Shown piece by piece: positions 9,384 to 57,684 of a stretch of 64,000 nt of DNA; position 1 is the first letter of the stretch, and each line of letters starts with the position of its first letter. The DNA comes from an uncultured Rhodospirillaceae bacterium (lineage in GTDB: Bacteria > Pseudomonadota > Alphaproteobacteria > MPNO01 > UBA830), in assembly GCA_963977005.1 (NCBI GenBank), contig CAXBMQ010000012.1, positions 4,307 through 68,306 of the forward strand, given 5' to 3'. Below the pieces are notes generated by a model that saw only the letters and a list, made by a program, of their open reading frames with translations, made no database searches and had not been told where the DNA came from. A program made the position numbers and the translations under genes.

Positions 9384-10724
9384 CTAGGGTTTTTCGTCGA
9401 TTCCCTTCGGATCGCCGACGATAACGACCGTCAGATCGTCTGCCCTGTACAACCGCTTCGCCACCCGATTGGCGTCGTCGAGAGAGATGGAATTGATCAA
9501 CGCAGGACGCTTCTTGATGTAATCCATACCGAGATCGGAAATCTGGATACCGACCAGCATATTCGCGATACCACGGCTTGAGCCAAGGCGAAGCGGGAAC
9601 GACCCGTTCATATAGGTTTTCGCGTTCGCCAGTTCCCGAGCCGTAATGCCTTTTGCCGAAAGTTTCCGCCATTCGTCCCGGATAACCGAGAGAGATTCCG
9701 CGGCCCGCGCATTCTGGGTGGCGACCCCCCCGGCGAGGAGTGCGGAATGTTCCATCGGGCTGAGATAGGCATAGACCGAATAGGCAAGGCCACGCTTTTC
9801 GCGAATTTCTTCATACAAACGCGAGCTCAACCCGCCGCCGCCGAAAACGCGCGTCACCAGCAGCGCCGCGTACCAGTCCTTATCGTCGCGCTTCAACCCC
9901 GCATGGCCCAGGATCATCATGCTTTGCGGTATCTGCTTGCGGACGATCAAGGTCTTGCCGCTGCCGGCCGGCTCGGTTTCGGGAATCGCGAATGTCCGTC
10001 CGGTGGCGGGCAAGTCGCCGAACACGCTATCGAGGCGGCGTTTGAGCTCTTCTTCCGAAATATCGCCGACAACACCGACGACCAGGCGGTCCCGGCTGAA
10101 ACGATCGCGGATAAACGACCTCAGATCGTCGGCGGTGAGCGTGGCGACCGTCTTCTCGGTGCCGTCAGACGGCTTTGAATAGGGATGGTCCGGAAACACC
10201 GTTTCGGACCACAAACGACCGGAAATCGTCCGCGGGTTTTTTGCCTGCTGACGCAGGGATGCAAGCATCTGCGACCGGATACGTGTGACGGGGCCTTCGT
10301 CGAAGCGGGGTGCATTGAGCGCCAGTCGCAGCAAACCGAACGCTTTTTCACGCTCTGCCGCCAGTGTCCGTAACTGGCCGGTAAACGTATCCCGTCCCGC
10401 GCTGAACGTCATCTGGGCGGCGATTTCCTCGAGCGCCCGCTGGAACGCCTGGGATTTCAGATCGCCCGCCCCTTCGTCCAGCAGGCCGGATGTCATTTCG
10501 GCCAGTCCCTCTTTCCCGTCAGGGTCGGTCGCCGATCCGGCATTCCGGAACGCAAAGCTCATCGCCACGAGCGGCACGGATTTGTCGGGCACAAACCATG
10601 CGACGATACCCTTGTCCGAAACGACTTTGCGGATATCCATCGCATACAGCCGGTTGGTAGGAACAAGGACGGACAGCGCGAATGCCGCGACGACGAGACC
10701 GGGTATGATCCGCGATACCTTCAT
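9384..10724 (-). CDS. M16 (pitrilysin/insulinase) family zinc peptidase, subunit 2
   Basis: 446 aa with a signal peptide and M16 fold. Overlaps the upstream M16 gene by 4 nt, as in PqqL-like pairs. Confidence 0.85.
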   Translation of the reverse strand: MKVSRIIPGLVVAAFALSVLVPTNRLYAMDIRKVVSDKGIVAWFVPDKSVPLVAMSFAFRNAGSATDPDGKEGLAEMTSGLLDEGAGDLKSQAFQRALEEIAAQMTFSAGRDTFTGQLRTLAAEREKAFGLLRLALNAPRFDEGPVTRIRSQMLASLRQQAKNPRTISGRLWSETVFPDHPYSKPSDGTEKTVATLTADDLRSFIRDRFSRDRLVVGVVGDISEEELKRRLDSVFGDLPATGRTFAIPETEPAGSGKTLIVRKQIPQSMMILGHAGLKRDDKDWYAALLVTRVFGGGGLSSRLYEEIREKRGLAYSVYAYLSPMEHSALLAGGVATQNARAAESLSVIRDEWRKLSAKGITARELANAKTYMNGSFPLRLGSSRGIANMLVGIQISDLGMDYIKKRPALINSISLDDANRVAKRLYRADDLTVVIVGDPKGIDEKP

Positions 10725-45917: not shown

Positions 45918-46703
45918 GTGTATACCGTCGTGGACGGAAGTTTAACATTCGACGTCCTCGTTTTATCGGGCAAATCCCAGTGGACCAGCATTTCCCGCTG
46001 GCCCGACGCGATATCTGCCCAGAACGAAGCCCGCAAGCTGGTCGCGAGCAAGAAGCACCTCGGCGTGAAGGTATCGCAGGAAAGCTACGATCATGCCGAA
46101 AACCGCTTTATGGAAAAGACGCTTTTCAAGCATCTGAAGAGCGACAAAAAGGCGACGCAACCGGCGGCGGAAGCGGCGCCGGCGTTTTCGGCCGACAGTT
46201 TCGGTGAAACCGACGATTACGACGAATTCGACGAATTCGACGACTTCGCCGATTACGACGACGGTCCGGACTGGGTAGCGCCCATCTTCGGCATTTTTGC
46301 AGCTCTCGTACTCATAGTGGGTCTTGGAATTTTCTTTTTTGAAGAAACAGCGGAGGTCGGTTCCTGGGCAAAATCAGAGTTCAAATCGGAGGGCAAGTCC
46401 GACTACTTCGTATTCCCGCTACCCGCAGCCATAACCAACGTCTCGAATGGCGATGAGAACGTCTCGGTCAGGATCGATCTACAGCTCGAACTTGACGGCG
46501 CACACGACGTCAAAGCGGTAGAGTTCGCGCTCGCCCAGATTATGGAATCGGTGATCATTGAAATTCAGGAGACCGATGCCGGTGACCTTCAGCGGAGCGA
46601 GAAAATTCAGTTGCTGCGCGCCAAACTCAAACAAAAAATACAGGACGCCATGGGGGAAACGAACCTCAATGGCGTCCTGTTTAACAATATTCAGGTATTC
46701 TAG
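45918..46703 (+). CDS. FliL-like membrane protein with an atypical long N-terminal cytoplasmic region and acidic linker
   Basis: Single TM (WVAPIFGIFAALVLIVGLGIFFF). The C-terminal 110 aa match the FliL periplasmic domain pattern (YFVFPLPAAITNVS..VSVRIDLQLEL.., ending NNIQVF). Preceded by a D/E/F/Y-rich run. Confidence 0.5.
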   Translation: MYTVVDGSLTFDVLVLSGKSQWTSISRWPDAISAQNEARKLVASKKHLGVKVSQESYDHAENRFMEKTLFKHLKSDKKATQPAAEAAPAFSADSFGETDDYDEFDEFDDFADYDDGPDWVAPIFGIFAALVLIVGLGIFFFEETAEVGSWAKSEFKSEGKSDYFVFPLPAAITNVSNGDENVSVRIDLQLELDGAHDVKAVEFALAQIMESVIIEIQETDAGDLQRSEKIQLLRAKLKQKIQDAMGETNLNGVLFNNIQVF

Positions 46704-46718
46704 CGCGGGTTGCTACCT

Positions 46719-47720
46719 CTACTTCGCGGGAAACTTCACGGCCGGGTTCAGATAGGCATTGCTGTATGCCCCCTTGATGTCGAACGGTTTTTCCAGCTTG
46801 AAATAGGTCTCGACCATTTTGTAGTCGCTGGTCATCCGCGTGTCGTCGAAGTGACCGAGAGCAACTGTGCGCGACGTTGCGTCGTTCATCAGCTCGGTGA
46901 CGAGATTCCAGTTTTTCATTGAAGAGGCCGTTTTCAGACCCGAATTCGCCGCGACCAAGGCGTCGATGCACGGCACCGGCGTTCTGACGCAATCGGCATA
47001 GGCCTGTTGCGTGATCTTAACGAATTTGCCAACCGTTTCTCCGTTTTCGGCCAGGTACTTACCGTTGGCGACGATCGAGTTGCCGTAAGGATTAATGCCG
47101 TGATCGCGCCACGGCAGGAAGCCCATATCGTCACCCAGCACATTCTCGAAGATAAAGTGAATATTGTAGAACGACGTCGTGATATCGATGTTCTTCGACT
47201 TAAGCGCCGCGATCTTGGCGTTCGGCGCAACGTTTACCCAGCGAACGGATTTCGGATCGACGCCGGTCGCCGCCGCAAGAGCCGGCCACATCTTGCGGGC
47301 CGCATCCCACGCCGGGTTGCCGATCTTCTTGCCGGCAAAATCCTTGACGCTCCTGATCCCGGAGCTTTTCAGCCAGTACATCCCGTAGGGCGAGTTGGCG
47401 TAAATATTCATCACACCAACGAGGTCGGCGCCCTTGCCCTTGGTCACAAGCGCGGTGCCCAGATCGGCAATGCCAAGCTGGTTTTTACCGATACCGACAC
47501 GCTGGGACGACAGGGTAGAACCCTTGCCCTGTTCGATCGTCAGATCGATACCGGCCTTCTCGTACAAGCCCCGTGCCTTGGCCCAGTAGACGGGTGCGTG
47601 ATCGCCACCGGCGACCCAGTTCAGGATGAAATTGATTTTTTCCGCACTCTGAGCCGGAACGGCAGAAAATGTGACAGTCGCCGCGGCAACGGTTGCGAGC
47701 AATTTTGTTCTGATCATGTT
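46719..47720 (-). CDS. ABC transporter substrate-binding protein, NMT1/THI5 (SsuA/TauA/ThiY-like) family
   Basis: Signal peptide from Met at 47720 (MIRTKLLATVAAATVTFSAVPAQSA), then a periplasmic binding-protein fold. The ORF track extends to 47837. Confidence 0.8.
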   Translation of the reverse strand, partial: NMIRTKLLATVAAATVTFSAVPAQSAEKINFILNWVAGGDHAPVYWAKARGLYEKAGIDLTIEQGKGSTLSSQRVGIGKNQLGIADLGTALVTKGKGADLVGVMNIYANSPYGMYWLKSSGIRSVKDFAGKKIGNPAWDAARKMWPALAAATGVDPKSVRWVNVAPNAKIAALKSKNIDITTSFYNIHFIFENVLGDDMGFLPWRDHGINPYGNSIVANGKYLAENGETVGKFVKITQQAYADCVRTPVPCIDALVAANSGLKTASSMKNWNLVTELMNDATSRTVALGHFDDTRMTSDYKMVETYFKLEKPFDIKGAYSNAYLNPAVKFPAK

Positions 47721-47840
47721 CGTTCTCCCCTTTTCGATTGAATTTGACTTTGTATGTCCGGCTTTCGGAGTGCAGCGCCAAAGGGTTACCCTGGCCATCC
47801 CTCTTGTGCAGCCATGCCTCTTGCCGTCCTGCCGCACCTC

Positions 47841-47894
47841 GCGTAAGTAACTATACGGTTATTTCAGGCTAGGACCCGGCATCCGGCCTGTCAA
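47841..47894 (+). promoter_or_regulatory. Conserved 54-bp promoter/operator block, copy 1, containing the palindrome TAACT-N4-GGTTA
   Basis: gcgtaagtaactatacggttatttcaggctaggacccggcatccggcctgtcaa. About 87% identical to copy 2 at 50561. Lies in the divergent region between the binding-protein and permease genes. Confidence 0.6.
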
Positions 47895-47947
47895 TAAATG
47901 TTCTCGCAGCGCAAGCGCGCGATGCCGGGAAACCCGATGGGGATTGG

Positions 47948-48709
47948 ATGACGGTATTGAATTTCGTCCGGCGATACTGGATTGCGGTGGCAGCACATAT
48001 CGCAGTCATCGCGGCATGGCAGCTATTCGTCCAGCTCGGCGAAGTGGAATCCTATATAATGCCGTCGCCGCTTGCGACGATCATGACGCTCGGCGACGAC
48101 AACGCATGGGTGCACAACACCCTGTTCACAGCGGGGGAAATCTTCGGCGGGTATTTCTGCGCGGTCGTATTCGGCGTCGGCATGGCGCTTCTGTTCTCAT
48201 GGTCGAAACTTCTGGACGCCGCCTTCATGCCGCTGCTGATCAGCCTGAACATGATTCCCAAAGTGGCGCTTGGCCCGATTTTCATTGTCTGGTTCTCTTA
48301 CGGCATGGGCTCGAACATTTTGATGGCGTTTGCCATCAGCTTCCTGCCGATCCTGATTACGACGGCGCGGGGCCTGAAGGAAGTCGAACCCGATCTCATT
48401 GACCTGGTACGCACCCTCAGGGCATCGCGCTGGCAGGTTTTCACCAAGATCCAGCTACCCGGTTCCCTGCCGTTTATATTTTCCGGCATGAAGGTCGCGG
48501 TTGTCCTGGCCGTCGCGGGCGCGATTGTCGGAGAGTTCATCGCATCGGAAGAAGGTCTTGGTTACCTGATGATGCAGCGTCAGGTCGAGCTCGATACAGC
48601 GTCGATGTTCATGGCTGTTTTGCTGATCACGCTGATCGGGTCGGTTCTGTACGGGCTTGTCATTCTGCTGGAGAAAATAATGGTGCCACAGGACGCGCGG
48701 CTCGGATGA
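47948..48709 (+). CDS. ABC transporter permease (SsuC/TauC-like)
   Basis: 253 aa, 6 TM, EAA-like loop (RTLRASRWQVFTKIQLP). Confidence 0.85.
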   Translation: MTVLNFVRRYWIAVAAHIAVIAAWQLFVQLGEVESYIMPSPLATIMTLGDDNAWVHNTLFTAGEIFGGYFCAVVFGVGMALLFSWSKLLDAAFMPLLISLNMIPKVALGPIFIVWFSYGMGSNILMAFAISFLPILITTARGLKEVEPDLIDLVRTLRASRWQVFTKIQLPGSLPFIFSGMKVAVVLAVAGAIVGEFIASEEGLGYLMMQRQVELDTASMFMAVLLITLIGSVLYGLVILLEKIMVPQDARLG

Positions 48710-48710
48710 G

Positions 48711-49487
48711 GTGCCACCAATGACTGATCCGTTTATCCGCCTGTCCGGCGTCCGCAAGGAATTCGAGACTCGGGGGGAAACATTCCTCGCCGTCTCCGAC
48801 GTAACGTTCGACGTCGCCGAAGGCGAACTTGTTGCGCTCGTCGGGCCGTCCGGCTGCGGTAAAACCACGGTACTGAAAATGATTGCAGGACTGCACGATC
48901 ATTCCGGTGGCGACATGCAGATCGGCGGGACGGACGGCGCGGGTTTCAGCGCCGACAAGGATATCGGCATGGTGTTTCAGCAACCCCTGCTGCTGAAATG
49001 GCGCAAAGTGCTGGAGAACGTGCTGCTGCCGGCAGAGATTCTCGGCCTGCCCATGGCCGAAGCGCGGGACCGGGCCAAAGACCTGCTCGCGCTGGTCGGA
49101 CTCACCGGGTTCGAGGGCAGCTATCCGTACGAACTGTCCGGCGGGATGCAGCAGCGCGCCGCCATCGCAAGGTCGCTGGTGCACGATCCGAAAGTCGTGC
49201 TGATGGACGAACCCTTCGGTGCGCTTGATGCGCTAACCCGCGAAAGCATGAATATCGAATTGCTGCGCATCTGGTCGGAAAGCAAAAAAACGATCCTGTT
49301 CGTCACCCACGGCATTCAGGAAGCCGTGTTCCTGGGCAGCCGCGTGATCGTGCTGACGTCCAGCCCCGCCCGCATGGCGGGGGATATCCCGGTGGATCTG
49401 CCCTACCCGCGCAAGCTTGAGATCAAGACAAACGAAGATTTCGGCGTTTACACGCGCCAGATATACGGTCTGCTGGGAATGGCCTGA
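48711..49487 (+). CDS. ABC transporter ATP-binding protein (SsuB/TauB-like)
   Basis: Walker A GPSGCGKTT, signature LSGGMQQR, Walker B VLMDEPFGALD. Confidence 0.9.
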   Translation: MPPMTDPFIRLSGVRKEFETRGETFLAVSDVTFDVAEGELVALVGPSGCGKTTVLKMIAGLHDHSGGDMQIGGTDGAGFSADKDIGMVFQQPLLLKWRKVLENVLLPAEILGLPMAEARDRAKDLLALVGLTGFEGSYPYELSGGMQQRAAIARSLVHDPKVVLMDEPFGALDALTRESMNIELLRIWSESKKTILFVTHGIQEAVFLGSRVIVLTSSPARMAGDIPVDLPYPRKLEIKTNEDFGVYTRQIYGLLGMA

Positions 49488-49503
49488 CGGCCAACTGCCG
49501 CGG

Positions 49504-50535
49504 CTACGCGACGACGGCGCTTTCCCGCCCGAGATACAGATCCCGCCCGGCATTGAGCACGCCGATCTTGCGGTCTGCGATATAGCGTTTGTGGTTCCAC
49601 AGCCCGCAATCGGGATGAATGTAGGTAACCCGGCCCTCGCCCATGATGCTCTCGGCGCGTTCGATCAGCCGCGCGATATCGTCCGGCGATTCGGTCATCG
49701 TGCGTTTGACGTCGACGACACCGAGCCCCATGCCGATTTCAGGACGGAGTTCCTTGAACGCGACAAGTTCTTCCGCGGGGCGATGCGCGCATTCCATGAC
49801 GATATGATCGACATGCAGCGCGTTCAGATAATCCATCAGACGCCCCCAGGAGCCGTCCTGCGGCTGCTGACCGGCATAGTTGCCAAAGCACAGATGTACC
49901 GCGGGAATTCCCGGCACGGCGTCCAGCACCTTGTTCATCGCCGCCGCCGCCCATTCCCATTCCTCGGGATTGCCCGGCAGGTTGGCTTCATCGATCTGCA
50001 CTATATCGGCATCGAGCCGCGCGACCTGTTCGGCAAGCACATCGGCGATTGCGTCGGTCACGGCCTCAATACTGCCGTAATGATGATCCACCAGCGTTTT
50101 CGCCAGCATGTGCGGACCCGTCAGCGCAAACTTGAACGGCTTCTGCGCCAGCGCCTTCGCGCGGCGACAGGGAAACGCGAGATTCATTGTACCGCTGCTG
50201 ATCGCGCCTTCGACGACGCCGGCAGGCAGCCGCCGCCACCCCATGTTCATGTCGGATTCGAACTGGCGGATCAGATCGAAGGTCAGCGCTGAGCGGATCC
50301 CTTCCATCGGCGACGTAAAGTATTCGATCATGCCATTGGTTTCGGGATGGCTGAGATCGTAGCGATACACCTCGCCGTCGCAGACCACGTCGAGCCCTGC
50401 GGTCTCCTGCGTGTGCAGGATCACGCGCGTTGCGTCGGTAATGTCCTGTTCGGACGGGCTGTTGCCGAGCCAGGCGGGCACCGGGTAGGAGCCGACAGTC
50501 GTGGTCTTGATGCGGGGAGCTGTATCCATGATCAT
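49504..50535 (-). CDS. Cobalamin-independent methionine synthase (MetE) C-terminal-domain-like protein (core-MetE/UroD-like family)
   Basis: 343 aa. N terminus KTTTVGSYPVPAWL. Zn-ligand-like His/Cys/Glu (HIVMECAHR; YIHPDCGLW). Confidence 0.7.
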   Translation of the reverse strand: MIMDTAPRIKTTTVGSYPVPAWLGNSPSEQDITDATRVILHTQETAGLDVVCDGEVYRYDLSHPETNGMIEYFTSPMEGIRSALTFDLIRQFESDMNMGWRRLPAGVVEGAISSGTMNLAFPCRRAKALAQKPFKFALTGPHMLAKTLVDHHYGSIEAVTDAIADVLAEQVARLDADIVQIDEANLPGNPEEWEWAAAAMNKVLDAVPGIPAVHLCFGNYAGQQPQDGSWGRLMDYLNALHVDHIVMECAHRPAEELVAFKELRPEIGMGLGVVDVKRTMTESPDDIARLIERAESIMGEGRVTYIHPDCGLWNHKRYIADRKIGVLNAGRDLYLGRESAVVA

Positions 50536-50560
50536 AATCCTTGCCGAAACGTCGGTGGCG

Positions 50561-50614
50561 GCGTAAGTAACTAAACAGTTATTTCAGGCTAGGGGCCGGG
50601 CAATCGCCTGTCAA
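50561..50614 (+). promoter_or_regulatory. Conserved 54-bp promoter/operator block, copy 2, with the perfect palindrome TAACT-N4-AGTTA
   Basis: gcgtaagtaactaaacagttatttcaggctaggggccgggcaatcgcctgtcaa. Lies in the divergent region between the MetE-like and tetR genes. Confidence 0.6.
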
Positions 50615-50659
50615 CCGAAAGCCGACCTCACCTCGGCGCGACCAGGAGAAGCGCGGACG

Positions 50660-51325
50660 ATGCCTGCAAAGATCGACAGCAAGGCCGCTCGGCAAGCCGG
50701 CAAAGAACGCGTCCGCCGCGACCCCGACGCGTCGCAGCGGCGCATTCTGGCCGCGGCAACCGAGGTCTTCGCAGCCCAGGGGCTTGACGGCGCGCGGGTC
50801 GATGAAATTGCTGACCGCGCCGGTATCAACAAGCGGATGCTCTATCACTATTTCGGAAACAAGGACGAGCTGTTCGGCGCCGTATTAAACGAGCTCTATG
50901 AGACGATCTGCCGTGACAGCGCCGCGCTCGATCTGAATGCGGGTCCACCACCTGAGGGACTCGCCCGGCTGGTCGATTTTGTCGTCGATTACTATCTCGG
51001 CAATCCTCACGCAATCACGCTGCTGAACGCCGAGAACTTGCATAAGGCGCGTCACCTGAAGACGTCGGAACGCATTCGCGCGATCCATTTGCCATTCGAG
51101 GAAATGCTGGAGGAACTGCTCGCCCGCGGCGTTGCGACGAACGATTTCAGATCGGGCGTCAGTGGTGCGCGGCTATACATCTCCATCGTCGGGCTGACCT
51201 ACTATTACCTGTCGAACGGACATTCACTGTCGGTCTTCTTCGACCGCGATCTTTACGACCGCAAAGAGCTGAAAGCCTGGCGGCAGCATATTCACGAAAT
51301 GGCGCAGCGCTTCGTCGCCGTCTGA
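50660..51325 (+). CDS. TetR/AcrR family transcriptional regulator
   Basis: N-terminal HTH (ILAAATEVFAAQGLDGARVDEIADRAGINKRMLYHYFGNKDELF). Confidence 0.9.
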   Translation: MPAKIDSKAARQAGKERVRRDPDASQRRILAAATEVFAAQGLDGARVDEIADRAGINKRMLYHYFGNKDELFGAVLNELYETICRDSAALDLNAGPPPEGLARLVDFVVDYYLGNPHAITLLNAENLHKARHLKTSERIRAIHLPFEEMLEELLARGVATNDFRSGVSGARLYISIVGLTYYYLSNGHSLSVFFDRDLYDRKELKAWRQHIHEMAQRFVAV

Positions 51326-51344
51326 ACATCAAGGGGAGCAGAAA

Positions 51345-52496
51345 ATGGCCGAACAAAGACTTGGGATCATCATGAACGGCGTCACGGGCCGTATGGGCAC
51401 CAACCAGCATCTGATCCGGTCTGTCCTCGCGATCATGAAGGAGGGCGGGGTAAAGCTGCAAAACGGCGACACCGTCATGCCCGACCCGATCCTGGTGGGC
51501 CGCAACGCGGCGAAAGTCGAAGCGCTGGCCAAAGAACACGGCGTCGAACGCTGGACGACCGACCTGGACGCGGCAATCGCCGACCCCAAGGACACATTGT
51601 TTTTCGACGCGGCCAGCACAAACCTCCGTGCGGGACTCCTCCGCCAGGCCATCGATGCCGGGAAAGACATCTATTGCGAAAAACCGTCCGCCGCGACACT
51701 GGAAGATGCGATCGAGCTCTATCATCGTGCCGAGAAAGCGGGGGTCAAACATGGCGTCGTACAGGACAAGATTTTCCTGCCCGGCCTGCAGAAAATGAAA
51801 AAACTGATGGATGACGGCTTCTTCGGCCGGCTGCTGTCGGTAAAAATCGATTTTGGCTACTGGGTATTCGAAGGCGACTGGAAAAAGGCCCAACGACCGA
51901 GCTGGAATTACCGCAAGGAAGACGGTGGCGGGATCATTCTCGATATGATGCCCCACTGGCGCTACGTGCTCGACAACACGTTTGGCAACGTCAAAAGCGT
52001 CACCTGCATGGGCCGCGTCAATATCGACAAGCGATGGGACGAAAACGACGAACCCTACGATGCGGACGCAGACGATGCCTCATACGCCCTGGTCGAATTG
52101 GAGGGCGGCGCCGTGGTCAATATCTTCGCCTCCTGGTGCACCCGCGTGCGCAAGGACGACCTGGTCACATTCCACGCCGACGGCACACACGGTGCTGCCG
52201 TGGCCGGTCTGACCAAATGCCATATCCAGGACCGCCCGGGCACACCGTCGCCGGTCTGGAACCCGGACGAACCGCAAACGACGGATTTCTTCACGACGTG
52301 GACCGAATACGGCGCCGATATGGAATTCGACAACGGCTTCAAGGCGGAATGGGAAATGTTTATCCGCCACCTGCACGAAGACGCACCGTTCCACTGGAAC
52401 CTGCGCGAAGGCGCCAAGGGACTTCAGCTTGCCGAAGCCGCCATGCAGAGCTGGCAGGAACGCCGCTGGATCGATATCGAAGAGATCGCGGAGTAA
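51345..52496 (+). CDS. Gfo/Idh/MocA family oxidoreductase
   Basis: N-terminal Rossmann domain (LGIIMNGVTGRMG) and the C-terminal alpha/beta domain of the family. 383 aa. Confidence 0.85.
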   Translation: MAEQRLGIIMNGVTGRMGTNQHLIRSVLAIMKEGGVKLQNGDTVMPDPILVGRNAAKVEALAKEHGVERWTTDLDAAIADPKDTLFFDAASTNLRAGLLRQAIDAGKDIYCEKPSAATLEDAIELYHRAEKAGVKHGVVQDKIFLPGLQKMKKLMDDGFFGRLLSVKIDFGYWVFEGDWKKAQRPSWNYRKEDGGGIILDMMPHWRYVLDNTFGNVKSVTCMGRVNIDKRWDENDEPYDADADDASYALVELEGGAVVNIFASWCTRVRKDDLVTFHADGTHGAAVAGLTKCHIQDRPGTPSPVWNPDEPQTTDFFTTWTEYGADMEFDNGFKAEWEMFIRHLHEDAPFHWNLREGAKGLQLAEAAMQSWQERRWIDIEEIAE

Positions 52497-52501
52497 ACCC
52501 G

Positions 52502-53668
52502 ATGGTATCGATCACACTCCCGCGCGCTGATGGCGGGCTGGAACAATACGAAACCGGCACGCCGCGCAATTTCCCCGAGACTGCGGACCGCCCGTTCAAC
52601 AGAATCGCCTATGCCGCAGCCCATGTCGTTCCCAACGCGGCGGCCGACAACGACCCCTGGATCGATACCGACGTCGACTGGGACCGCACCATCGCCTTTC
52701 GAACGCATCTGTGGAAACTGGGGCTCGGCGTTGCCGAAGCGATGGACACGGCCCAGCGCGGGATGGGAATGGACTGGCCGACATCGCTCGAACTGATACG
52801 CCGCAGCGTGGATGCCTCGAAAGACGTGCCGGGCGCGGTGGTCGCATCGGGGGCGGGCACCGATCACCTCGCTCCATCGCCTGACCTGTCGATCGGCGAT
52901 GTGATCGCTGCATACGAAGAACAATGCGAAGCGGTCGAGGCCTGTGGCGGCCGGATTATCCTGATGGCAAGCCGCGCGCTCGCCGCCTGCGCCAGATCGC
53001 CTGACGATTACGGCAAGGTCTACGACCGTATACTGGGAAATGTGAAGGAACCGGTGATTGTTCACTGGCTTGGGGAAATGTTCGACCCTGCGCTCGAGGG
53101 GTACTGGGGCCATGCGGATCATCACGTGGCGATGGATATCTGCCTCGACGTGCTGAAACGGAACGCCGACAAGGTCGACGGCATCAAGATTTCGCTGCTC
53201 GACAAGGACAAGGAGATCCGGCTACGTCGCGGCTTGCCCGACGGTGTGCGCATGTTTACCGGCGACGATTTCAATTACGCCGAGTTGATCGCGGGCGACG
53301 ACGAAGGGTATTCCGATGCCCTGCTGGGGATTTTCGATGCCATCGCCCCTGCCGCGTCGGCAGCGCTGGCCGCCCTGGCCGGAAACCGGCCGGATGAATT
53401 CCACGATATCTTCGCGCCGACGGTGCCCTTGTCTCGTCATATCTTCAGGGCGCCGACCCGGTTCTACAAAACCGGTGTGGTCTTCATGGCCTATCTGAAC
53501 GGTCACCAGGACCATTTCACGATGATCGGCGGCCAGCAAAGCACACGATCGATCGTGCATCTTGGCGAGATATTCCGCTTGGCGGACAAGGCCGGTTTGT
53601 TGAAGAGCCCCGATGAGGCCGCTGCCCGGATGAGCCGGGTGATGGCCGTCCACGGCATAGGGGTCTGA
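52502..53668 (+). CDS. DUF993 family protein (dihydrodipicolinate-synthase-like TIM-barrel superfamily)
   Basis: 388 aa from the ATG at 52502, which lies 5 nt after the upstream stop. The ORF-track start at 52034 is in another frame that overlaps the oxidoreductase gene. Conserved Gfo/Idh/MocA-DUF993-isomerase gene order. Confidence 0.55.
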   Translation: MVSITLPRADGGLEQYETGTPRNFPETADRPFNRIAYAAAHVVPNAAADNDPWIDTDVDWDRTIAFRTHLWKLGLGVAEAMDTAQRGMGMDWPTSLELIRRSVDASKDVPGAVVASGAGTDHLAPSPDLSIGDVIAAYEEQCEAVEACGGRIILMASRALAACARSPDDYGKVYDRILGNVKEPVIVHWLGEMFDPALEGYWGHADHHVAMDICLDVLKRNADKVDGIKISLLDKDKEIRLRRGLPDGVRMFTGDDFNYAELIAGDDEGYSDALLGIFDAIAPAASAALAALAGNRPDEFHDIFAPTVPLSRHIFRAPTRFYKTGVVFMAYLNGHQDHFTMIGGQQSTRSIVHLGEIFRLADKAGLLKSPDEAAARMSRVMAVHGIGV

Positions 53669-53671
53669 CCG

Positions 53672-54499
53672 ATGACAGCACCGGATCTTGAAAAGCTCGC
53701 CATCAACCAGGCGACCACGATGAAGCAGTGGACGCTGCGCGAAGCCATCGAAGGGTATGCGGCAAAGGATATCCGCGGGATTTCGGTCTGGCGCGACAAG
53801 CTTGCCGAATGCGGGGTCGATGAAGCGGCGCGCATTCTGAAAGACAACGGCATGACCGTCACCGGCGTCTGCCGCGGCGGCATGTTTCCCGCCATTGACG
53901 ATGCCGGACGGCAGGCGGCGCTGGACGACAACCGCCGCGCCGTCGACGAAGCCGCCGCCATTGAGGCACAATGTCTTGTGATGGTATGCGGCGGCCTGCC
54001 GGACGGGTCGAAAGACATGATCGATGCCCGGAAACAGGTCGCCGACGGCCTGGCGGCGATGCTGCCCCATGCCATCGATGCCGGCGTGCCGGTCGCGATC
54101 GAGCCACTGCACCCGATGACGGCCGCCGACCGCGCCTGCGTCAACACGCTGGAACATGCGCTTGATCTGTGCGATGCGCTGGGTGACGGCATCGGTGTTG
54201 CCGTGGATTGCTATCACGTGTGGTGGGACCCGAAGCTCGAGGACCAGATCGCCCGCGCTGGCAGCCGCATCCTCGGATTTCACGTCTGCGACTGGCTGGT
54301 GCCGACTGTCGATCTGGTCTGGGATCGCGGCATGATGGGCGATGGCGTGATCGACATTCCGCGTATTCGTGGCTGGGTCGAAAATGCGGGGTATCGCGGC
54401 TTCAACGAAGTTGAGATATTCTCCGAACGGAACTGGTGGAAACGCGACCCGGTCGAGGTCGTCGACACCTGCATGGAACGGTATCAACACTTCGTATGA
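53672..54499 (+). CDS. Sugar phosphate isomerase/epimerase (xylose-isomerase-like TIM barrel)
   Basis: 275 aa AP-endonuclease-2/TIM-barrel family. Metal-ligand pattern (E..D..H..E). Confidence 0.8.
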   Translation: MTAPDLEKLAINQATTMKQWTLREAIEGYAAKDIRGISVWRDKLAECGVDEAARILKDNGMTVTGVCRGGMFPAIDDAGRQAALDDNRRAVDEAAAIEAQCLVMVCGGLPDGSKDMIDARKQVADGLAAMLPHAIDAGVPVAIEPLHPMTAADRACVNTLEHALDLCDALGDGIGVAVDCYHVWWDPKLEDQIARAGSRILGFHVCDWLVPTVDLVWDRGMMGDGVIDIPRIRGWVENAGYRGFNEVEIFSERNWWKRDPVEVVDTCMERYQHFV

Positions 54500-54510
54500 G
54501 GGAATGAATA

Positions 54511-55632
54511 ATGGCGAGCGCAGAGGGTCTTAAAGAGGTCGGATATTTTGATTGTGCCGGCGGCGGACAAATCCGCGTCGACGGAACAACGGCCTATATC
54601 GGTCACATGGCCAACCCTTTCGGTACGAGCATCGTCGATGTCGCCGATCCGAAAAATCCCAAGCTCCTCTCCCATATCGAGATGCCGGAAGGCACGCATT
54701 CGCACAAGGTGCATGCACAGGGCGACCTGATGGTGCGCAATCATGAGCTTATCGGCCCCGGCAAGCCCGATGATTTTCACACAGGTGTCGGCATCTACGA
54801 TGTTTCGGACAAGACAAATCCGAAACTGGTATCGACCTGGGATACCGTTGGCCGCGGCGTCCATCGTTTCGATTTCGACGGCCGCTACATGTATTTCTCG
54901 TCCACGGTCGAAGGTTATCGCGGCCCAATCATGGTCGTGCTCGACCTGAAGGACCCCGAAAACCCGGTCGAAGTATGCAAATGGTGGATTCCCGGACAAT
55001 GGGAAGCCGGCGGCGAGGAATATCCCTGGGGCGACGGGCCCGAGCCGCGCTGCCATCATCCGCTGCGCCTGGGCAACCGGCTGTATATGAGCTACTGGCA
55101 TCACGGGCTGTTCATCCTCGATATCGAGGATCTGTCGAACCCGAAGATGATCTCGTCTTTCAACACGGGACCGACATTCCCGCACCCGACCCACACGGCA
55201 CTGCCGATTCCGTTCGAAATCGGCGGCCACAGGCACATGATCGTCGCCGACGAAGACGTCGCCAAGCTGCGCCCGCATGCACCGGCCTTCATGTGGATCT
55301 TCGACATCACGGACGAGACCAATCCGATCCCGATTTCGTCCTGGCAGGTTAACGGTCTCGATCTTATCGGCGAGCCCGAGGGGATGTTCACCGGGTGTCA
55401 TCAGCCGAGCGAGATCGTCACCGGCACCGTGATCCCGTTTGCCTGGTTCGCCCGCGGCATCCGGCTGATCGACATCGCCAATCCGCACGCACCGGTCGAA
55501 GTCGGACATTTCGAACCCGACCCGCAGCCCGGTTGCGACCGCATCTGCGCGAACGACATCACCGTTGACGACCGCGGCCTGATCTACGTCATAGACCGGC
55601 TTCGCGGTTTTCATATCGTCGAAAAGGTCTGA
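54511..55632 (+). CDS. LVIVD-repeat beta-propeller protein
   Basis: Six repeats of hydrophobic-x-hydrophobic-D-hydrophobic-x-D...NP (IVDVADPKNP, IYDVSDKTNP, VVLDLKDPENP, ILDIEDLSNP, IFDITDETNP, LIDIANPHAP). Confidence 0.7.
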   Translation: MASAEGLKEVGYFDCAGGGQIRVDGTTAYIGHMANPFGTSIVDVADPKNPKLLSHIEMPEGTHSHKVHAQGDLMVRNHELIGPGKPDDFHTGVGIYDVSDKTNPKLVSTWDTVGRGVHRFDFDGRYMYFSSTVEGYRGPIMVVLDLKDPENPVEVCKWWIPGQWEAGGEEYPWGDGPEPRCHHPLRLGNRLYMSYWHHGLFILDIEDLSNPKMISSFNTGPTFPHPTHTALPIPFEIGGHRHMIVADEDVAKLRPHAPAFMWIFDITDETNPIPISSWQVNGLDLIGEPEGMFTGCHQPSEIVTGTVIPFAWFARGIRLIDIANPHAPVEVGHFEPDPQPGCDRICANDITVDDRGLIYVIDRLRGFHIVEKV

Positions 55633-55829: not shown

Positions 55830-56993
55830 TTGACCATGGCGACGTCGACCGATGACACGATGAAACGCGGCGCAAACCGTGAAGCACTGCTCGATGCGGT
55901 GTACGACAAGCTCGATTCGCTCGACATGGCGCCCTATTGGGCGGTGAACCCCAATGAAAGCCAGAATGACGAGGACGGCCAGGTTCTGAAAGGCAAGAAG
56001 GCCGAGCCGTTCATGTGGAAATACGCGGACATCGAACCGCTGCTATACGAAGCGGCCGAACTGGTCACGATGGAAGATTCCGAACGCCGCTCGATCGTGC
56101 TGGTCAACCCGGGACTGGCGCCGGTCCGGGCGACCGTCTCGACGCTCTATACGGCTTACCGCCTGAACGATCCGCGCGAAATCATGCCGCCACACAGCCA
56201 TTCGATCAACGCGGTGCGTATCGGCCTGACCGGCGACCAGAACTTCACCGGCGTCGAGGGCGAAGCCATCACTTTCGGGCCGGGCGACGTTGTGCTGACA
56301 CCGGCCGGCGCATGGCATAACCATGGCAATCACGGCGACGATTACGCCGTCAATGTCAGCATTCTCGACCTGCCCCTGACCGAGGTGCTGAACGCCGCGT
56401 CGTTCGAACACGACTACAAGGAAGAGGTCGACGGCCAGATGGTCTCGCGCCGCGAACAAACGGCACGATACTCCGACGATCATTCGCATAAAACATATGG
56501 ATTTGGCGGGTTACGGCCACGGTTTCTCGATCATCGCCGCGGCACCGGCGTACATTCGCCGATGTATGTCTATCGCTGGAACCGAACCCGCGAACTGCTT
56601 GAGAGCTTCCGCGATCACGAGGGCAGCCCGTGGGATGCCATCCAGGTCGAATACACCGATCCGATCAACGGGCGGACGGCCTATCCAACGATGACGTTCT
56701 TCGGCGAGATGCTCCGTCCGGGCGAGCGGACGCTGCCGCAACAGCAGAATGCGAGCCAGGTCGTAATTCCCTTCCACGGTAACGGACACAGCATTGTCGG
56801 CGGAAAACGCTTCGACTGGTCGCCGTTCGATGCGATCGCGATCCCGGGCGGTGAATGGTACGAGCATGCCAACGGCTCGGACAGCGGGGAAGCCACACTG
56901 TTCGCCGCGAGTGACGAGCCGGTTTTGAAAGCCCTTGGGTTCTACAAACGCCACGGCAAGACCGAAAGCGGCGAGATCGTTCAACTCGACTAG
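55830..56993 (+). CDS. Bicupin protein (gentisate 1,2-dioxygenase-like cupin family)
   Basis: Two cupin modules. The first has a 3-His motif (PPHSHSINAV..WHNHGNHGDD). 387 aa. Confidence 0.65.
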   Translation: MTMATSTDDTMKRGANREALLDAVYDKLDSLDMAPYWAVNPNESQNDEDGQVLKGKKAEPFMWKYADIEPLLYEAAELVTMEDSERRSIVLVNPGLAPVRATVSTLYTAYRLNDPREIMPPHSHSINAVRIGLTGDQNFTGVEGEAITFGPGDVVLTPAGAWHNHGNHGDDYAVNVSILDLPLTEVLNAASFEHDYKEEVDGQMVSRREQTARYSDDHSHKTYGFGGLRPRFLDHRRGTGVHSPMYVYRWNRTRELLESFRDHEGSPWDAIQVEYTDPINGRTAYPTMTFFGEMLRPGERTLPQQQNASQVVIPFHGNGHSIVGGKRFDWSPFDAIAIPGGEWYEHANGSDSGEATLFAASDEPVLKALGFYKRHGKTESGEIVQLD

Positions 56994-57090: not shown

Positions 57091-57684
57091 TCAGCCTGCT
57101 TTTGGACGATTGATGCCGGCCGTCAACGGCTCGGGAATGTCGATGTCTTCGTCGTCTGGGCGCACCGTTGACAGCGGGTTTTCAAAATCGTCCTGCAGCG
57201 GATCGTCAGGTGTTTCCGGGTCTGACTGCGGCGGGTAGCCGCCATCCTGCGGCAGCGAATCATTCGTCCCGGTTCCGGCATCGGCCGAATCCGCAGTATC
57301 GACTTCTCGCGGATATGTGCCGGAGGCGGAATCTGCCGGCATCACGGGCTGCTGCTGAGGCGGCGGCGTGCCTGCATTTCCGGCTGGTTCGAATTCGGCG
57401 ACCTTGGGTTCGGAGTCGCGCCACGTCGTCGTGCGCGCGACATACAGATCGTAATCGGCCTGTAACCGGAGCCACAGTTCCGCCGTTGTCCCGAAATACT
57501 TTGCAAACCGCAGCGCTGTATCGGGTGTGACCCCCCGCTTGCCGGCAACGATATCGCTGATCCGACCGACAGGCACATCGATATCCCGGGCCAGCTTGTT
57601 CCGGCTGACGCCAAGCGGTGTCATCACCTGGTCGAACAGGATTTTTCCAGGGTGTTTGGGTGTTGAATCAGTCATCAATGGCAA
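57091..57684 (-). CDS. HigA-family (XRE HTH) antitoxin-like protein with a long disordered acidic/proline-rich C-terminal tail
   Basis: The N-terminal 90 aa match the HigA addiction-module antidote HTH (KHPGKILFDQVMTPLGVSRNKLARDIDVPVGRISDIV). The C-terminal 100 aa are low complexity. No RelE/HigB partner is adjacent. Confidence 0.65.
   Translation of the reverse strand: MPLMTDSTPKHPGKILFDQVMTPLGVSRNKLARDIDVPVGRISDIVAGKRGVTPDTALRFAKYFGTTAELWLRLQADYDLYVARTTTWRDSEPKVAEFEPAGNAGTPPPQQQPVMPADSASGTYPREVDTADSADAGTGTNDSLPQDGGYPPQSDPETPDDPLQDDFENPLSTVRPDDEDIDIPEPLTAGINRPKAG

Follow-up and report, generated by a model that had tools for sequence, protein, structure and literature searches.

Two similar non-coding blocks of 54 nt are located at 47841-47894 and 50561-50614 of the 64-kb stretch of DNA analysed here (the window), and the locus raises the question of whether they are operators of the TetR-family regulator encoded beside the second block and, if so, which genes they bring under common control. 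On comparative grounds we consider it probable, at roughly 80%, that a dimer of this adjacent regulator, which is of the TetR_C_29 type, binds a palindrome in each of the blocks, represses the two opposed promoters at each locus and is released by a ligand. The genes of the neighbourhood are the following.

46719-47717, minus strand: NMT1/THI5-like periplasmic solute-binding protein of an ABC importer, 332 aa (Pfam NMT1, E = 4e-44)
47948-48709, plus strand: ABC importer permease (BPD_transp_1)
48720-49487, plus strand: ABC importer ATPase (ABC_tran; the gene call gives 255 aa, and an ORF start at 48711 is also possible)
49504-50529, minus strand: MetE-C-terminal-like protein (Meth_synt_2), 341 aa (Pfam E = 1e-22; nearest PDB entry 3RPD)
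50660-51325, plus strand: TetR-family regulator (TetR_N and TetR_C_29), presumed repressor, first gene of its operon (PF00440, E = 5e-18; PF17938, E = 4e-37)
51345-52496, plus strand: Gfo/Idh/MocA oxidoreductase, 19 nt past tetR
52502-53668, plus strand: DUF993 protein (Pfam E = 2e-182; PDB 4DNH, deposited as 'uncharacterized protein')
53672-54499, plus strand: xylose-isomerase-like TIM-barrel protein (PDB 3JU2, deposited as 'uncharacterized protein SMc04130')
54511-55632, plus strand: LVIVD-repeat beta-propeller protein, encoded by the last of the closely spaced operon genes
55836-56993, plus strand: bicupin, gentisate / 5-aminosalicylate dioxygenase-like (Pfam/NCBIfam), of uncertain membership in the regulon
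about 57091-57684, minus strand: XRE/HTH_3 protein, downstream of the bicupin

The genes for TetR, the Gfo/Idh/MocA oxidoreductase, the DUF993 protein, the TIM-barrel protein and the LVIVD protein are separated by gaps of 19, 5, 3 and 11 nt, which suggests that they form one operon. The tetR gene starts 46 nt past the second block, and its product matched no NCBIfam equivalog at cut-off (best score 54 bits versus 250). The nearest solved relatives of the solute-binding protein are 4NMY and the ThiY/THI5 family. TPP riboswitches are frequent ahead of NMT1/ThiY-type genes; a TPP or other riboswitch ahead of the NMT1-type gene was rejected here, as the search of both strands of 46000-52000 returned no Rfam match at E ≤ 1. 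The sub-threshold NCBIfam names SaoP and SaoA, obtained for the permease and the ATPase, belong to a selenoprotein-associated transporter and were set aside as irrelevant. The MetE-like protein comprises a C-terminal catalytic-type domain only, scores far under the cut-offs of all NCBIfam methionine synthase models (at best 139 bits versus 406) and is probably not a methionine synthase. Its orthologue in Pikeienuella adjoins a cytochrome P450.

A repeat search of the 64-kb window identified the blocks as a two-copy direct repeat with an offset of 2720 nt. Their boundaries are those of the preliminary description, whose figure of about 87% identity is slightly generous: the blocks are 81% identical when aligned without gaps, and approximately 47/55 (85%) by hand count when two single-base gaps are admitted. 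The left 33 nt (GCGTAAGTAACTAWACRGTTATTTCAGGCTAGG) agree at 31 of 33 positions between the copies, are exclusive to the two blocks within the 64-kb window and were found in 0 of 100 shuffles. The repeated module reaches about 20 nt beyond the left edge of the blocks, to a common CTTGCCG (47820-47826 and 50540-50546). As first described, both blocks carry the 14-mer TAACT-N4-(A/G)GTTA, at 47848-47861 in copy 1 and at 50568-50581 in copy 2, and the core 14-mer of copy 2 is a perfect palindrome. A search of the 64-kb window with one mismatch allowed gave five strand-matches against 0.8 expected, a number attained by no shuffle, and added a single further, unrelated match at 10371. The palindrome is longer than the 14-mer and spans 20 bp (AAGTAACT-N4-RGTTATTT; 47845-47864 and 50565-50584). 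With a weight matrix of the symmetrised 20-mer, two sites only were found in the window, scoring 34.6 (copy 2) and 33.7 (copy 1); the next-best score, within the LVIVD gene, was 5.6, the maximum over 50 shuffles was 13.7, and no operator was found at further genes of the window. The arms hold 1.5-2.1 bits of information per position and the centre 0.8-1.2 bits. Each block lies in a divergent intergenic region, as had been noted earlier, copy 1 between the genes for the NMT1-type binding protein (minus strand) and the permease (plus strand), and copy 2 between the Meth_synt_2 gene (minus strand) and tetR (plus strand). Members of the TetR family are mostly local repressors, with palindromes of 15-20 bp over the promoters of adjacent, often divergent genes; here a site of about 14-20 bp with dyad symmetry is present in the upstream regions of tetR and of adjacent targets.

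Each block is best read as a composite, with two opposed core promoters and a putative operator in between, and not as an operator alone. The elements of the two cassettes are as follows.

47821-47826, plus strand: copy 1, candidate −35 TTGCCG toward the permease and ATPase genes; conservation 0.94 (19 distinct sites), with a spacer to TAAGTA that is constant in length (17 nt) and variable in sequence
47844-47849, plus strand: copy 1, candidate −10 TAAGTA, overlapping the left operator arm; invariant in close relatives
47845-47864, no strand: copy 1, predicted operator palindrome AAGTAACT-ATAC-GGTTATTT (core 14-mer 47848-47861; matrix score 33.7)
47866-47871, minus strand: copy 1, candidate −10 TAGCCT toward the binding-protein gene, in the central 28 nt of conservation 0.93 and 17 nt from TTGACA
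47889-47894, minus strand: copy 1, candidate −35 TTGACA; conservation 1.00 over 19 sites
50541-50546, plus strand: copy 2, candidate −35 TTGCCG reading into tetR, overlapping the opposite-strand ribosome-binding region of the Meth_synt_2 gene
50564-50569, plus strand: copy 2, candidate −10 TAAGTA, from comparative conservation
50565-50584, no strand: copy 2, predicted operator palindrome AAGTAACT-AAAC-AGTTATTT (core 14-mer 50568-50581; matrix score 34.6)
50586-50591, minus strand: copy 2, candidate −10 TAGCCT reading into the Meth_synt_2 gene
50609-50614, minus strand: copy 2, candidate −35 TTGACA, from comparative conservation

The plus-strand promoter would be TTGCCG-N17-TAAGTA and the minus-strand promoter TTGACA-N17-TAGCCT, both putatively of the sigma-70 type. 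The downstream segment, which the preliminary description had treated as part of the operator, is better divided: 'ttatttcaggctagg' and 'ctgtcaa' would correspond to the right arm of the operator together with the two hexamers (−10 and −35) of the minus-strand promoter. The plus-strand assignment is weak, because TAAGTA shares only two positions with TATAAT. No other conserved hexamers for a plus-strand promoter were found by eye within or to the right of the block, since that stretch is variable spacer. A strict sigma-70 consensus scan, which demands at least 4/6 matches per hexamer and thereby excludes TAGCCT and TAAGTA, called zero promoters in either intergenic region; the promoter assignments are therefore drawn solely from comparative conservation. 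In the copy 1 intergenic region, the conservation of TTGCCG at 47821-47826 has neither a coding nor a ribosome-binding explanation. Both cassettes have equal polarity, with the better promoter toward the binding protein or the MetE-like protein and the weaker one toward the membrane components or the regulator operon.

For the comparison, TetR homologues at graded identity were located and their contigs were compared. Six loci with TetR identities of 67-88% share the synteny, one of these (L010) without the ABC importer. The module CTTGCNG-N17-(C)GTAAGTAACT-N4-RGTTATTTCAGGCTA-N17-CTGTCAA is present in both intergenic regions of the syntenic loci (in L010, in the second region only). Conservation was computed over 19 distinct sites with standard spacing, from the relatives and from the genome scan given further below, after duplicates had been dropped.

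left hexamer, TTGCCG: conservation 0.94
central 28 nt, TAAGTA...AGGCTA: conservation 0.93
right hexamer, TGTCAA: conservation 1.00
two 17-nt spacers, variable: conservation 0.67 and 0.57
outer flanks, variable: conservation 0.48-0.64

Of 22 sites, 19 have a right-hand spacer of 17 nt and two have one of 18 nt, and the sequence of this spacer is free. Constancy of length without constancy of sequence is the hallmark of promoter spacers, and we therefore read the module as putative face-to-face promoters. A natural spacing variant supports the promoter reading: in the MetE-like/tetR intergenic region of L009 (9894-9960), 9 bp are duplicated in tandem (GCTACGGAA / GCTACGGAT) between the predicted operator and the candidate minus-strand −35, which recreates TAGCTT exactly 17 nt from TTGACA and shifts the operator 9 bp further downstream. 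Purifying selection has kept the palindrome at both intergenic positions throughout the syntenic loci, with adjoining spacers that drift. The two −10 elements would by themselves account for some of the conservation seen across the central 28 nt. The right arm reads GTTATTT in this lineage versus GTTACTT in distant relatives.

The window is identical at this locus to marine metagenome contigs, one of them a 256-kb TARA scaffold, and the binding-protein gene is also called in these identical contigs. When plasmid records were searched for near-identity, the result was only short matches of 72-80%, by which a known plasmid as the source of the window was ruled out. Across L005-L009, TetR (70-88% identity) has evolved somewhat faster than the permease (84-94%) and the binding protein (78-92%) beside it, and the changes in TetR fall outside the near-invariant DNA-binding region. 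One Rhodospirillaceae MAG (L025, 5056-5488) holds just short remnants of the Gfo and TIM-barrel genes between tetR and the LVIVD gene; DUF993 and the ABC importer were undetected, and the MetE-like gene, tetR, the operator, the LVIVD gene and the bicupin gene are intact. This locus is a deletion variant of the cluster.

Beyond the syntenic loci, the palindrome accompanies TetR orthologues of down to 43-49% identity, in the form GTAAC(C/T)-N4-(A/G)GTTAC, in Pikeienuella, Rhizobium tropici, Sinorhizobium americanum and an Erwinia plasmid, and in the distant loci it always precedes tetR and/or the Gfo-DUF993-TIM-barrel genes. The clusters of L028 and L029 (about 59% TetR identity) and of Pikeienuella piscinae (49%) carry three to five copies, ahead of importer genes, tetR, PhyH, Gfo and a DUF3604/epimerase pair; one copy in L028 is a 32-nt perfect palindrome, CTCTATAAGTAACTAAATAGTTACTTATAGAG. 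The loci of R. tropici, S. americanum and Erwinia, three of the plasmid-record matches, lay outside the building of the matrix and served for validation. Matrix sites of 27.2 and 32.8 were found in R. tropici CIAT 899 (TetR 47%; next score 3.7), two sites of 27.3 each in S. americanum (46%; next score −1.8) and one site of 21.4 in the tetR/Gfo intergenic region of the Erwinia plasmid (43%). Both rhizobial loci have one site upstream of tetR and one between tetR and Gfo, and no comparable hits were obtained elsewhere in the validation loci, the three distant clusters, the six syntenic loci or the MAG loci of the genome scan. Where these distant contexts are unidirectional, a −10-like hexamer (TATAAG or TATAGT), 16-18 nt past a TTGAC or TTGCC hexamer, adjoins the left half-site or overlaps with it, as in TTGACA-17-TATAAG followed directly by TAACT. 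The helix-turn-helix region of TetR (residues 28-72, ...RILAAAT..F...G..GARVDEIA.RAG.NKRMLYHYFGNKD.LF) is nearly invariant among orthologues of 48-100% identity, which fits a conserved DNA target. A motif that is locus-specific, selectively conserved and found together with TetR orthologues of near-invariant helix-turn-helix supports the TetR regulon first proposed for this locus.

The core of TetR, Gfo/Idh/MocA, DUF993 and xylose-isomerase-like TIM-barrel genes is kept on Erwinia plasmid NZ_CP046581.1 (L031), on R. tropici pRtrCIAT899c (L032) and on S. americanum plasmid C (L033), large plasmids or chromids far beyond the marine lineage. The Erwinia locus has an MFS transporter instead of the ABC importer. 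In the distant clusters (L028, 1-580 and 2106-2236; L029, 1158-1263), a second TetR_C_29 paralogue is encoded beside a DUF3604 gene, and the DUF3604/epimerase intergenic region contains a weaker variant, TCAACC-N4-GGTTAC, with scores of 12-13, which may be the operator of this paralogue or a low-affinity site of the same regulator.

As for the extent of the regulon, the operator would by inference link four transcription units, namely the binding-protein gene, the permease-ATPase genes, the MetE-like gene and the tetR-Gfo-DUF993-TIM-barrel-LVIVD operon. The single regulon of the preliminary description, which had also taken in the bicupin, is supported for the importer, the MetE-like protein and the tetR-to-LVIVD operon by the conservation of the motif and its co-occurrence with TetR; the bicupin is at most a possible member. 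The bicupin gene follows after a gap of 197-203 nt, has no operator of its own according to the weight matrix in the window, and is preceded in L006, L007 and L008 by other, inserted genes. Neither a terminator nor a promoter was called in the gap between the LVIVD and bicupin genes, and co-regulation of the bicupin by read-through is possible.

The proposed mechanism would then operate as follows. Each block would act as a short control cassette for both directions, about 75 bp long, with two facing core promoters of the sigma-70 type. The weaker, plus-strand promoter would serve the permease-ATPase genes at copy 1 and the tetR-Gfo-DUF993-TIM-barrel-LVIVD operon at copy 2, and the stronger, minus-strand promoter would serve the solute-binding protein at copy 1 and the MetE-like protein at copy 2. 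The single 20-bp palindrome would be situated between the two −10 elements, where it would overlap the plus-strand −10 as well as both predicted starts of transcription; its half-site centres are separated by 11 bp, or about one helical turn. A TetR dimer on this palindrome would block both opposed promoters at both loci, and the regulator would be autoregulatory, its own operon being among the four repressed units. The inducer, we infer, would be the imported compound or an intermediate of the pathway, which would bind the C-terminal domain of TetR and free the operator, and the release would induce the importer and the enzymes together.

The palindrome could alternatively be the operator of another factor, either the XRE/HTH_3 protein, whose gene keeps its place after that for the bicupin in L001-L009, or a global regulator. 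We regard this as improbable, as the motif is kept without an HTH_3 gene within 10 kb of tetR (L010 and L028-L030 by gene calls, Erwinia by annotation), a TetR orthologue with a nearly invariant DNA-binding region always adjoins the motif, and the two sites in 64 kb are fewer than a global regulator would be expected to have. It is also quite improbable that the block contains no operator and that its central segment is kept solely for two overlapping core promoters with their −10 elements, discriminators and start sites, with the dyad as a by-product of their facing arrangement. Both candidate −10 hexamers do lie inside or beside the conserved 28 nt, and opposed promoters necessarily give some symmetry, but the dyad GTAAC-N6-GTTAC is kept at the unidirectional promoters from tetR to PhyH, from PhyH to Gfo and from tetR to Gfo, including the 32-nt palindrome of L028; moreover, the arms are conserved and the central 4 nt variable, and the position of the dyad relative to the −35 shifts between loci (20-24 nt) while its sequence is retained. 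A further alternative concerns the direction of control. A few members of the TetR family act as transcription activators, and the N-terminal region of this TetR has a weak, sub-threshold similarity to one of them, FasR (NCBIfam); that the protein acts at the site as an activator or dual regulator rather than as a simple repressor is nevertheless very unlikely, given a site that is placed over the inferred −10 elements and starts of both promoters and not upstream of a −35, in a geometry of steric repression.

Whether the block is a dispersed element was addressed with a scan for GTAAGTAACTNNNNNGTTATNTCA in one genome per species (185,579 species). The pattern is a strict one of 18 bases that includes the promoter flanks, so that sites consisting of the operator only would escape it. 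The scan gave 19 matches in 17 stretches. Twelve of the 19 are full modules, in about nine marine alphaproteobacterial MAGs, and all of them occupy the binding-protein/permease or the MetE-like/tetR intergenic position (tblastn with the window proteins). The other seven lack the flanks, come from Bacillales, Flavobacteriales, Burkholderiales and similar taxa, and are of the same order as the approximately 17 chance matches estimated for 18 specified bases. No third full-module locus was found in any MAG of the collection scan, with at most two sites per MAG. An apparent third operator locus in MAG CAJQLI01 (L011) was rejected, being the solute-binding-protein/permease site split at a contig end (tail of L011, head of L020). 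The preliminary description had allowed that the block might turn out to be a REP-like element dispersed in many copies over unrelated loci; two copies were found in 64 kb, and full modules at two homologous positions only. That a REP-like or MITE-like element, dispersed or mobile, landed here twice by chance, as a direct repeat of 54 nt or more containing a palindrome might suggest, is hardly credible and effectively refuted by this distribution, by the lack of any terminal repeats or target duplications seen, and by copy types that differ consistently across genomes (spacer ATAY with ...TGTCAATAAAT versus spacer AAAY with ...TGTCAACC), the duplication therefore being older than these lineages.

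Repression by the adjacent TetR, the preferred reading, corresponds to a textbook TetR design; the regulatory device is of a known kind and causes little surprise. It resembles TetR/tetO of Tn10 in that the regulator gene adjoins its targets, palindromic operators lie in a short divergent intergenic region over opposed, overlapping promoters, one protein serves both directions as well as its own synthesis, and a small ligand is expected to release it. In Tn10, a single intergenic region contains two tandem 19-bp operators, whereas one 20-bp palindrome per region is present here, in a cassette used twice at a distance of 2.7 kb. The targets here are an importer and catabolic-type enzymes in place of the efflux pump of Tn10, the C-terminal domain is TetR_C_29, and the operator sequences are unrelated. 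Also similar are the RutR, BetI, KstR/KstR2 and PaaR-type regulons, in which a local repressor likewise has several palindromic sites before the operons of one pathway, transporter included, and which can likewise be inferred by phylogenetic footprinting. The form of the motif, half-site-N-half-site with AAC/GTT cores, resembles the KstR-type TnnAACnnGTTnnA; the present system departs from these regulons in spacing, with N4 separating the TAACT arms, and in the genes under control. Among solved structures, 3NPI and 2D6Y have the TetR_C_29 Pfam domain and the N-terminal helix-turn-helix in common with this TetR and are distant from it (E about 1e-15, 61 bits). No operator or ligand is transferable from them, because the entries carry generic TetR-family names only.

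The operator and its TetR may mark a widespread, uncharacterised catabolic module, a reading that we put forward tentatively and at somewhat less than even odds. Its core would be Gfo/Idh/MocA, DUF993, TIM barrel and a transporter, to which marine Alphaproteobacteria would add the NMT1-type ABC importer, the MetE-like protein, the LVIVD protein and possibly the bicupin. As substrate one would expect a marine metabolite that has so far escaped recognition, perhaps a methylated sugar-like or cyclitol-like compound, for which TetR would be the specific sensor. PDB titles and the literature searched gave no function for the triad of DUF993, TIM barrel and Gfo, and the regulated pathway had no characterised relative in the resources searched. 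Because DUF993 and its partner enzymes have solved structures and no function in those resources, the predicted repressor-operator pair is a usable start for ligand screening and pathway work. If the module reading is true, the regulon offers a direct handle on the function of DUF993 by means of a repressor-ligand screen and reporters. The operator consensus AAGTAAC(T/C)-N4-(A/G)GTTACTT is portable and retrieves this regulon from marine MAGs, Pikeienuella, Rhizobium, Sinorhizobium and the Erwinia plasmid.

The gene for a FliL-domain protein (ORF 45918-46703) contains at 46193-46261 of the window a short imperfect tandem array of 9-nt units of the CGACGAATT type, which by reading of the sequence would encode a repeat that is acidic and rich in D/E/F. 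In the comparison with relatives, no gene of the neighbourhood is more divergent than this FliL-like gene, at 37-74% identity versus 85-99% for the enzymes.
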